A DNA stretch of 64,000 nucleotides from Leucoraja ocellata (GCA_036785375.1 JAWMAR010000348.1:868001-932000), one strand, 5' to 3'. Shown: positions 2,166-5,100, counted from the stretch's first letter. The notes: generated from the sequence alone by a model not told the origin. Numbers and translations are program-made.

Positions 2166-5100
2166 GTAAGTCAATTCTCTAACATTTTCTCATTGAGCGT
2201 TAACATTCAGGTTTTATCCAGTTGTTTTGAGAAGTCTTCAGATGAATCATGCATCCAGAGAACAACAAAGTTTCTACAGTGCAAACTGACACTAAACCCT
2301 CTGCTTAAAATGATGACTCACAATGAACAGACTCCATGCAAAATAACATCAACAGCTTAGACAATGTAAGTGTAAGATTTACTGGGTCACAATATACCTG
2401 TGAGCCCTTTACTGATAGTGTGAGGAATAGCAAAGTTAACAATGCCCACCAGACTTACATGGAGGTTAAAGAACAGTTTGAAGTGACTGTTCAGGTACAG
2501 TTCAGTGTGTAGATCTAGAAGCTACAGTATTTTGCAGGTTACCTGAGTACCAGCTGAGCAAAATATAGAAGGTGATCACTAAAACACAATGAACAGTATG
2601 CGTTACTCCAGCATGCTGTGTCTATCTTCGGTGTAAACCAACATCTGCAGTTCCTTCCGACACACTTCATGGCGATGGACCAAACCCACAAGGATAAACA
2701 CAAAGTGCTGGAGTAACTCAGCGGCTCAGGCAACATCTCTGAAGAAAATGGAGAGATGACGTTTCAGGTCAGGATCCTTGTTCGGAGTCAATTACTTTCT
2801 AAAAGCATTTTATTACCGTTAAACAATCTTCCTGGTGTTGAATATTGTGGAATCGCATTCTTTCAAATTTTAATTTCGTAAGTTGGCTGATGACACGAAA
2901 GTAGGTGGTGTCATAGACAGTGAAGATGGTTATGGAAAAATTACAGCAGAATTTTGATTAGCAGGGCTGAGGAATGGCTAATGAAGTTTAATGCAGTTAG
3001 ATTCGAGGTGTTGCATTGTGGACAGTTAAACCAGGGCAGGTCCGAATAGTGTGTGATTATATTTCTGAGTTCTACTTCTATTTCCATGCTGGGTGAACCC
3101 TCCAAGATAGCTTCACATAGTGCAGCTGTAACTTTCTACCTAATCAGTGGTTGTGACTCCATCACCTCCTTTATATCCATCTCTAACCCCCCCCCCCCCC
3201 CCCCCCACCGAACATTAAGTTACCAGTCCTACTCATCTCTTAACTACTACTCCTGGCATAACATCATTCCCGCCATGTTAATAAACCTGGCCTTTTACAA
3301 TTACCTGACTCCGTCTTCTTTCGTGTGGCGTGCACAGCCTAAAGTTGTTGGACAACTTGTTCTATTTGATCTTCCGTTTGTGCACGTCAAGTTGATTGCA
3401 TTAGTCGAAACAGGGCGGACCACGTGAAGGTTGCAATCTTCCACCCCATTACCTGACTGAACCTCTACTTCATCAGTCTATACATCTGATGTCCTAGTGA
3501 CCTGACTCACACCTTTCTGCCACTCATGTTCAAACTTTCCCAAGTAATAATACTAAACAGTAGACGTAAACAGTTAACTGTGCGGAGGGTTGAGGTCCCG
3601 ACCACGGGGGAAAATGCAAGAGGACTGGCCAAATGTTGTGCCTTCCACCACAGTGATGAATGCTGTGGTGGATGTTTGTGTTAAATTTTTTGTGTGTTTT
3701 TTGTGTGTTCTTTATCATTGTACCGCTGCTGGCAAATTCATTTCACTTGCAGTTTTTTGGAAAGCCTCCCACTGCTGGTGAAATTCCTAAAACAGGAAAG
3801 ACTTCAATCCATACATTTATTAATTATAATAAAACCCCCAGCTATTTTCAGGCTACAACCAGAACATATGTTATCACCCATCATGTATGAAGAAAGCAGG
3901 CACATCCAAAAGAGAACGTTGTCCTCACGGTGTACATGCTGGGCACCTGTCTGTACTGTGGCACAGCTGACGCATTATATGATTTTGCCAGGCAAAAATG
4001 TTACTGATTGTTACTGCAAAGCAAAGAAGTAGTAAAGGGATTTCTGGATTTTCATAGAAAGGACTACCACCATCGTGGGTCCATAACACACTTTCTACAT
4101 TACCATGCCCATGGGACAATCTCATTCTATTGATCAATGAGATCCGGCTTCCATACATGTGGAATTCTCTGCCTCAGACGGCAGTGGAGGCCAATTCATT
4201 GGATGCATTCAAAAGAGAGTTAGATAGAGCTCTTTGGGCTAGCAGAATCAAGGGATATGGGGAGAAGGCAGGAACGGGGTACTGACTGTGGATGATCAGC
4301 CATGATCACATTGAATGACTCGATGCCAAAAGGCCTACTCCTGCACCTATTGTCTACGTATCTATGTATATATGTATTCAAATGTTGTCCCCACCTCTCA
4401 CTCTCTGTGGGTCAAGTTTGTATGTGTGATTGAGACCAACGTAGACATGAGCATCACCTTGGGTCCAAGCCTGACACATGACAGTGCGAGGAATCTTTGG
4501 CTCTTTGACCGATCCTTTCTCCTGGCACTATGAGGGTGCATTCCTCAGTCGTAATATAATCAACACAGCGCACAAGTTATGGCAAATTTACTATATGCGT
4601 GAAGCTGGGAGATGCCAGGAGATCTGAGCATCTTCACCCCTGCTCATACACAATGATTCATGGATCTAGTAACGATACAGATTCCAACAATCAATTCACG
4701 CACGGTATGATCATTCCCGCTGCATCACCTCCTGCAATGCTACTTTAATTACAACTGCAGATGCAGTCCTTGGGTGTCAGAAGTACAGTTTCTGCTTATA
4801 CTTCTCTGCAGACTAGTTATTAAGCAGCCAAGGTATATATAAAAGGATTTACATTGCACATATCTGCAAACACAGTGGCAACCCATTTGTTTAACATGCA
4901 TTCAGCGGGGAAAGCGGTTTATAGGGCTTGTAGGATTTGCTTACCTTACAATTTTTGTTTCGTAATTCATAAAGACACTAGAGTAAATATAATTTGAAAC
5001 TTCTCCATTAAAAATAAATGTCATTAAAATATATAGTGGCATTTTTAGGGTCTAATTAGCAGCTCACAGGATCATTATCAGATTCAAGATCTTTTCCATT

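Follow-up and report, generated by a model that had tools for sequence, protein, structure and literature searches.

A short element headed by a predicted P4-less ribozyme

The window analyzed here is a 64,000-nucleotide stretch of DNA whose minus strand, read from position 3447, carries a 137-nt element (3311-3447) with the sequence, coordinates, and pairings that a first-pass annotation of the window sequence had given it. Nucleotides 1-54 of the element (3394-3447) are predicted to form a P4-less ribozyme of the HDV/CPEB3 type, with G1 at 3447, where RNA 5′ ends also fall, and with the cut predicted to lie between 3448 and 3447. P1 pairs nt 1-7 (3441-3447) with nt 30-36 (3412-3418) and includes a G1-U36 wobble and one U-G pair. 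After J1/2 (nt 8-9), P2 joins nt 10-16 (3432-3438) to nt 48-54 (3394-3400) by seven Watson-Crick pairs, and the P3-L3-P3′ unit (3419-3431) comprises P3 (nt 17-19 with nt 27-29) and the loop UUCACGU (nt 20-26; 3422-3428). At 3405-3411, G37-U38 on the P1.1 side is followed by a 5-nt loop, UUCGA, between U38 and C44, where P4 is expected. J4/2 (3401-3404) reads C44-U45-A46-A47, with C44 (3404) as the predicted catalytic C; it is CUAA in the present copy and CGAA in an older subfamily.

The nested double pseudoknot (P1, P2, P3, and P1.1) is present in the right order, and this order, the pairings, and the 5 nt in place of P4, all claimed in the annotation, were borne out by the sequence, by a descriptor search, and by alignment to Vingi ribozymes (see below). 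P1.1 is a lone C22-G37 pair, the same as in the CPEB3 consensus, and L3, already likened to that of CPEB3, agrees with the Rfam CPEB3 consensus, as does the numbering as far as U38. The element has a purine in a wobble pair at position 1, a U-rich L3, and a C-N-A sequence in J4/2 carrying the catalytic C; with only 5 nt between U38 and C44 it has no P4 helix, as in minimal HDV-like ribozymes. Both G1 and C44 are present in 46 of 50 sampled copies.

Our own HDV descriptor matched the 64-kb window at this site only, and 100 dinucleotide shuffles of the window gave two matches in total, none of them compact. A scan of the window with Rfam returned no family at the gathering score, RF00622 included, and no hammerhead match, and the sole match in E-value mode was HDV-F-prausnitzii at 3394-3447 (16 bits, E 0.99). 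The nested minimum free energy z-score was 0.45, nested folding being blind to pseudoknots and uninformative here. A scan of metagenomes with the ribozyme core gave 0 matches.

Directly behind the ribozyme, the arm CGUGCACA (nt 62-69; 3379-3386) pairs with UGUGCACG (nt 112-119; 3329-3336) around an inner hairpin (nt 90-106; 3342-3358), so that the second structured domain and GAA-rich tail are as first described. The 3′ arm is followed by ACACG (nt 122-126; 3322-3326), an A(C/T)ACG end motif common to the element and to Vingi-like LINEs of the same genome, and by a GAA-repeat tail (3311-3321) whose length differs among copies. The element is flanked by a perfect 11-bp target site duplication (TSD), ATTACCTGACT, at 3300-3310 (downstream copy) and 3448-3458 (upstream copy); the upstream copy directly borders G1, confirming that the TSD abuts the predicted cut site, and is the single copy present at the empty site.

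ARAGORN found no tRNA head, and a scan for A and B boxes gave A-box-like sequences of at best 6-7/9 and a B-box-like sequence of at best 6/7 at position 77-79, with no convincing pair. Together with the Rfam scan, these results agree with the claim that a tRNA, 5S, or 7SL head and A/B boxes are absent, and they rule out a classical Pol III SINE. A theta ribozyme, expected in a phage genome with a tRNA 3′ end at the cut site, was ruled out since the element is without a tRNA and is a dispersed repeat in a 3.44-Gb genome; a retrozyme was ruled out by the lack of a hammerhead match and by sampled copies that are monomers with TSDs. The window holds a second, older copy at 57651-57787 (minus strand), which is 85% identical and belongs to subfamily b; its ribozyme has decayed and it has no clear TSD. 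Another high-copy repeat adjoins the element at 3580-3720 and appears in the RNA run mainly on the plus strand. The stretches at 12000-14000 and 32000-34000 are G+C-rich (0.49 and 0.52).

A dispersed family with a fixed 5′ boundary

A 22-nt 3′ pattern of the element has 5,236 exact matches in the 3.44-Gb genome, a lower bound on copy number, and a control pattern has 0. The element occurs in sequencing runs of four organisms. Run X7 (organism B) and run X8 (organism C) have contigs in which this locus is empty: the joint passes from 3299 to 3448 and skips 148 nt, that is, the element and one TSD. The SINE-like repeat family postulated from a single copy is thus real, and its dispersed copies, variable-length TSDs, simple-repeat 3′ tail, and empty orthologous site are those of a non-LTR retroposon.

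To locate 5′ ends, we chose 70 copies solely on the basis of the 3′ end: 30 were the first matches to one 3′ pattern, and 40 came from the first 42 matches of another type on contig C1. The sample includes segmental duplicates and draws nothing from searches that return the best-scoring, hence full-length, copies. Sixty of the 70 begin at G1-G4, 52 of them at position 1; the other ten comprise two whole copies split by later insertions and eight that are truncated or unresolved. None of the 70 extends upstream of G1, with shared upstream sequence in duplicates only. A TSD was found in 53/70 copies (10-14 bp in 51, 11-12 bp in 38), and the predicted pileup of TSD-flanked 5′ ends at G1 is therefore present. 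A pyrimidine (T or C) precedes G1 in 45 of these 60 copies (p 1e-4 versus one half) and an A in only 5, and the base at this position is often unlike its counterpart in the downstream TSD copy; the pyrimidine is perhaps an untemplated addition.

Two main subfamilies were distinguished. The 21 copies of subfamily a, which includes the copy at 3311-3447, differ from their majority sequence by 2.0-2.5%, and the 29 copies of subfamily b by 5.2-6.5%. The subfamilies differ from each other at 11 non-CpG positions, none of which falls on 46 constrained ribozyme positions (Fisher p 0.008, post hoc). Only two differences lie inside the ribozyme, at nt 8 in J1/2 and at nt 45 behind the catalytic C, where CGAA becomes CUAA; both forms are seen in Rfam HDV-type models, CUAA being J4/2 of the Rfam F. 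prausnitzii model. C44, A46, G37, C22, and the G1-U36 wobble are retained in both subfamilies. A strict descriptor was passed by 21 of the 50 sampled copies, and decay of copies is near even between ribozyme and remainder (0.020 versus 0.018 in a; 0.031 versus 0.046 in b), as expected for copies that are dead after insertion. No compensatory change was seen within the short-element family.

Vingi-like LINEs with CPEB3-type 5′ ribozymes

Because the 5′ end of Vingi-2_Gav (supplement of PMC5786205) shows a CPEB3 layout by eye, we searched the genome with RF00622, the model of the mammalian CPEB3 ribozyme. Of 59 matches, 56 were above the cut-off, the best at 64.7 bits. The 30 loci that were read are mostly 5′ ends of one LINE family (A), with families B, C, and D also present; dispersed examples are L207:1501-1571 (minus strand), L214:1501-1579 (minus strand), and L219:243-3370 (plus strand), among loci L188-L237. 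The heads of family C come close to matching the CPEB3 consensus. Five full-length copies of family A measure 3,126-3,149 bp and have TSDs of 10-11 bp, a sixth, with an insertion, has a TSD of 12 bp, and the family lies 1.0-2.7% from its majority sequence. The single ORF of family A encodes an APE domain, an RT domain, and, at its C terminus, a Cys/His motif, and the 3′ end of these LINEs is ACACGAAAAGAAGAAG; no RNase H match was obtained in the two pieces scanned, which gave Exo_endo_phos_2 and RVT_1 only. Relatives of its protein have 900-1,000 aa, many of them on 3.0-3.4-kb contigs, and an Anolis RT protein (939 aa) is 50% identical. Vingi has been described as a single ORF with APE then RT, without RNase H, of about 3.1 kb (PMC13708176), and on sequence grounds family A fits that description in domain order, length, and ORF number. 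Its 5′ end resembles that of Vingi-2_Gav by eye; its ribozyme has a P4 and helix sequences unlike those of the short element. At L193 and L198, from about 1512, lies a ~210-nt internally deleted family B element with the ribozyme, the ORF start, an AAG tail, and an apparent TSD, a second bipartite form in the genome.

The head of the short element aligns with six Vingi-like ribozymes without gaps over columns 1-39 and again at J4/2-P2′. In a pairing test on this alignment, 93.6% of cells were paired, versus 38-51% in slid controls, and 10 of 18 pairs had changed on both sides; the P1, P2, and P3 pairings are thus conserved, as had been predicted, the covariation being that between families in only 8 related rows, 2 of them near-identical. 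The ends are linked as well. In the short element and in families A and D, sequence immediately after the ribozyme forms pairs with sequence bordering A(C/T)ACG and the tail (against random 22-mers, p is 0.0045 for the short element, 0.02-0.03 for three copies of family A, and 0.017 for family D), and the arm sequences differ from family to family; in family B the pairing is not clean. At L219, L220, L223, and L233, the post-ribozyme stretch pairs with the pre-ACACG stretch across 3 kb.

The short element and these LINEs share TSD length, tail, A(C/T)ACG motif, and 5′-3′ end pairing. Subfamily a resembles family A in age, TSD length, and tail, and the two a-specific changes in the last 12 nt both turn ATACGCAA into the ACACGAAA of family A. 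Subfamily b is older than family A and ends in ATACG, like the LINEs of family B.

A candidate for the autonomous LINE that the annotation had anticipated exists in the same genome: Vingi-like LINEs with CPEB3-type ribozymes share TSD length, tail, and end motif with the element, but none found by exact patterns carries its own ends. Five exact-pattern genome searches, from which a decayed parent would escape and whose patterns excluded the short element, gave 324 matches, of which 96 were read as loci (146 matches with 30 read; 23, all read; 52 with 30 read; 87 with matched letters only; and 16 with 13 read). They revealed no parent LINE with these ends, and the candidates read were all deletion, indel, truncated, or interrupted copies. 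By tblastn, no Vingi coding sequence lay beside the tail at these loci, and by exact patterns no LINE shared the arm, inner hairpin, or ribozyme helices of the short element. A C-terminal protein search was dominated by family A, its six lower matches being family A copies or frameshifts where the ORF or tail was visible. The parent may thus be lost, decayed, or unassembled, and we infer the partner from shared features.

Proposed mode of mobilization

The element has no ORF in its 137 nt, a ribozyme in register with LINE heads, and a 3′ motif shared with them. The best explanation, in line with the inference drawn in the annotation, is that it belongs to the Vingi (Ingi-related) group of non-LTR retroposons as a non-autonomous member reduced to the two ends of a LINE. 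In the mechanism that we consider likely, the ribozyme trims a read-through transcript just 5′ of G1, a Vingi protein is drawn to the paired ends and to ACACG-(GAA)n, and the whole RNA is then copied by target-primed reverse transcription. A copy would be transcribed, probably via host read-through, and nt 1-54 of the transcript would fold as a minimal HDV-type ribozyme that releases the unit RNA by cleaving just before G1, making self-cleavage the putative source of RNA ends at that position. The post-ribozyme arm would then pair with the arm before A(C/T)ACG-(GAA)n, in the layout of full-length Vingi-like LINEs, and the paired ends may be bound in trans by the APE-RT protein of the LINE. Target-primed reverse transcription of the short RNA would mostly reach G1 and leave TSDs of 10-14 bp, products that the genomic copies show. 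Subfamily a was most likely moved by the Vingi-like family A.

Mobilization by another LINE, either a parent Vingi family of its own (now lost or too decayed) or a member of the RTE clade, overlaps this reading and seems to us unlikely. The exact register with Vingi-like ribozymes, the equal TSD length and tail, the ACACG motif with its end pairing, and the match in age between subfamily a and family A all point to the LINEs found here, even if none of these has the arm, inner hairpin, or ribozyme helices of the element. Subfamily b, being older than family A and ending in ATACG like family B, sits more easily with a different partner, and RTE elements too give bipartite ribozyme-headed derivatives (PMC5786205).

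RNA 5′ ends at G1

Run X23 consists of raw single-cell RNA reads from organism A, which may not be the species of the window, and about 1 in 100 of them was read. The reads aligned to 3050-3720 of the window number 4,521, and 1,366 of them have loose letters directly past 3447. Once reverse-complemented, the consensus of these letters (agreement 0.79, median 31 nt; single reads not visible) agrees exactly with a published template-switch oligonucleotide (TSO), its own three Gs included, giving seven Gs in a row, three from the TSO and four from the element. A further 253 reads break at 3448 with mixed flanking letters, like read-through from many loci. Depth over the element body is 1,400-2,200 in sense and 260-510 in antisense, and poly(T) ends at 3314-3322 show either poly(A) or tails on which oligo-dT has primed; neither the sense excess nor the poly(T) ends prove a promoter. 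Letters of both subfamilies are present, and depth is 0 in the flanks of the 3311-3447 locus.

The TSO reads fit a 5′-OH, capped, or triphosphate start at G1 equally well and are as consistent with a start site as with a cut. It could be that nt 1-54 are an internal promoter acting at +1 and that the P4-less fold cuts slowly or never, serving instead as a protective or protein-binding 5′ cap. We regard this as improbable, though it has precedents: in L1Tc/NARTc, Pr77 combines the roles of promoter and ribozyme (PMC3383444), and a study of R2 proposes that the fold protects the RNA whether active or not (PMC11331408). A P1.1 of one C-G pair and the loss of P4 would also suit a poorly active fold, but P4-less HDV ribozymes are known to cleave in vitro (PMC10879173). 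Retention of C44, A46, G37, C22, and the G1-U36 wobble in both subfamilies speaks against this reading, as do the lack of convincing A/B boxes and the change at nt 45 from CGAA to CUAA, the latter being the J4/2 sequence in the Rfam model for F. prausnitzii. Capped RNAs often yield an extra G at template switching, and the TSO consensus is without one, a weak point against the promoter.

It is very unlikely that library preparation, through TSO strand invasion at the G run or a reverse transcriptase stop, created the RNA ends at G1 of an otherwise real element. The element does begin with four Gs, the TSO ends in rGrG+G, agreement is 0.79 with single reads not visible, and oligo-dT priming on the A-rich tail can enrich short sense cDNAs. 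But invasion would leave four Gs in total, not seven, and a break near 3450, absent among the rows listed, so that we infer a real RNA end at G1, and a structural stop (such stops are reported in PMC4035085) would be expected 3′ of P1, not once P1 had been unwound.

Relation to known elements and to the CPEB3 ribozyme

Non-autonomous derivatives of LINEs with a ribozyme at the head are already well known, among them NARTc, RIME, SIDERs, R2 SIDEs, and the bipartite elements of RTE and Vingi, and the category is not new (PMC5786205, PMC4035085, PMC3383444, PMC6765202). In the L1Tc-ingi clade of trypanosomatids, NARTc, RIME, NARTco, and SIDER elements are short non-coding LINE derivatives that are mobilized in trans and whose nt 1 is an HDV-like cut site, and ribozyme activity has been shown for several elements of the clade (PMC4035085, PMC3383444). 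NARTc has 263 nt, a poly(A) tail, an L1TcRz ribozyme with P4, and in Pr77 a proven promoter; the short element, in contrast, has 137 nt, no P4, and a (GAA)n end, resides in a 3.4-Gb animal genome, and has no parent with the same 5′ end among those found. The R2 SIDEs of Drosophila are internally deleted, are freed from a cotranscript by an HDV-like ribozyme, and are mobilized in trans (PMC3414825, PMC6765202), but they are site specific in 28S rDNA with an RLE partner, whereas copies of the short element are scattered, have TSDs of 10-14 bp, and would have a partner of the APE type.

Non-autonomous Vingi derivatives (Vingi-1_EE internal deletions, SINE2-1_ACar, and SINE2-1_AMi) have the same bipartite 5′ plus 3′ layout (PMC5786205). 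The Vingi-2_Gav 5′ end and SINE2-1_AMi share the L3, CCCUGU, and CGAAU layout of the short element, although the Vingi head in that supplement has a P4, and the 3′ end of SINE2-1_AMi, with its ACACG and A-rich tail, recalls the ACACG end of the short element (PMC5786205). By eye, the alligator SINE2-1_AMi consists of a tRNA head, a whole CPEB3-like ribozyme, a short arm-arm hairpin, ACACG, and an A-rich tail, and its "unknown 3′ part" resembles a Vingi 3′ end (PMC5786205). Minimal HDV-like and theta ribozymes also lack P4 and combine a nested double pseudoknot with a catalytic C, but nearly 99% of them lie in Caudoviricetes, often beside tRNAs (PMC10879173), and here such a fold heads an animal retroposon. 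The CPEB3 ribozyme (RF00622) has P1, J1/2, P2, P3, and L3 of equal length, the same L3 sequence, and the same G1-U wobble, G37-U38, and C-N-A-A; it differs in its 7-bp P4 and its other helix sequences, and the short element falls below the RF00622 cut-off while Vingi-like LINE heads lie above it.

The RF00622 matches that were read are mostly Vingi-like 5′ ends, and family C heads are near the CPEB3 consensus, which suggests that the CPEB3 ribozyme is a retained 5′ end of the Vingi type. A broader proposal, which we put forward tentatively, is that the element is an active promoter-less mobile RNA, made of a 54-nt P4-less ribozyme and an end-pairing stem, that switched to a newer Vingi family by two base changes in its 3′ motif; that all Vingi start with a CPEB3-type ribozyme and pair their ends; and that the single intronic ribozyme of mammalian CPEB3 goes back to one insertion of the Vingi type whose 5′ end was kept and is not a mammalian invention. 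Human CPEB3 is a memory-linked gene, and the near identity of Vingi-like 5′ ends to its ribozyme makes the origin of the latter directly testable. If true, P4-less HDV ribozymes, hitherto known almost exclusively from phages (PMC10879173), reach an animal genome in thousands of copies whose RNA ends coincide with the cut site, and Vingi would join the ribozyme-headed LINE clades, with a 5′-3′ end-pairing signal in its RNAs. Gene insertion with Vingi-1 from Anolis employs a template that carries both UTRs (PMC13708176), and a natural 137-nt cargo therefore defines candidate minimal cis signals.

In the literature searched, whose coverage stopped short of subscription journals and patents, we found no HDV ribozyme named in Vingi and nothing joining Vingi and CPEB3. 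Literature searches likewise gave no P4-less ribozyme in an animal element, no P4 loss in an animal retroposon, and no short-element family in sharks, including in the available part of PMC3747384. The family or the Vingi ribozyme may already be recorded in Repbase, Dfam, or earlier literature.

Other elements read in the genome

A search with PF14529 (150 matches scored; 30 loci and 13 more fetched) gave I/Nimb-like elements without a ribozyme, which were set aside as parents. Loci L121-L150 and L174-L187 hold a young I/Nimb-like LINE family whose open frames reach 1,268 aa and in which the descriptor found no ribozyme. At L013, a 323-aa frame on the plus strand from base 1 resembles, by eye, what we take to be the tyrosine recombinase of a DIRS- or Crypton-type element.
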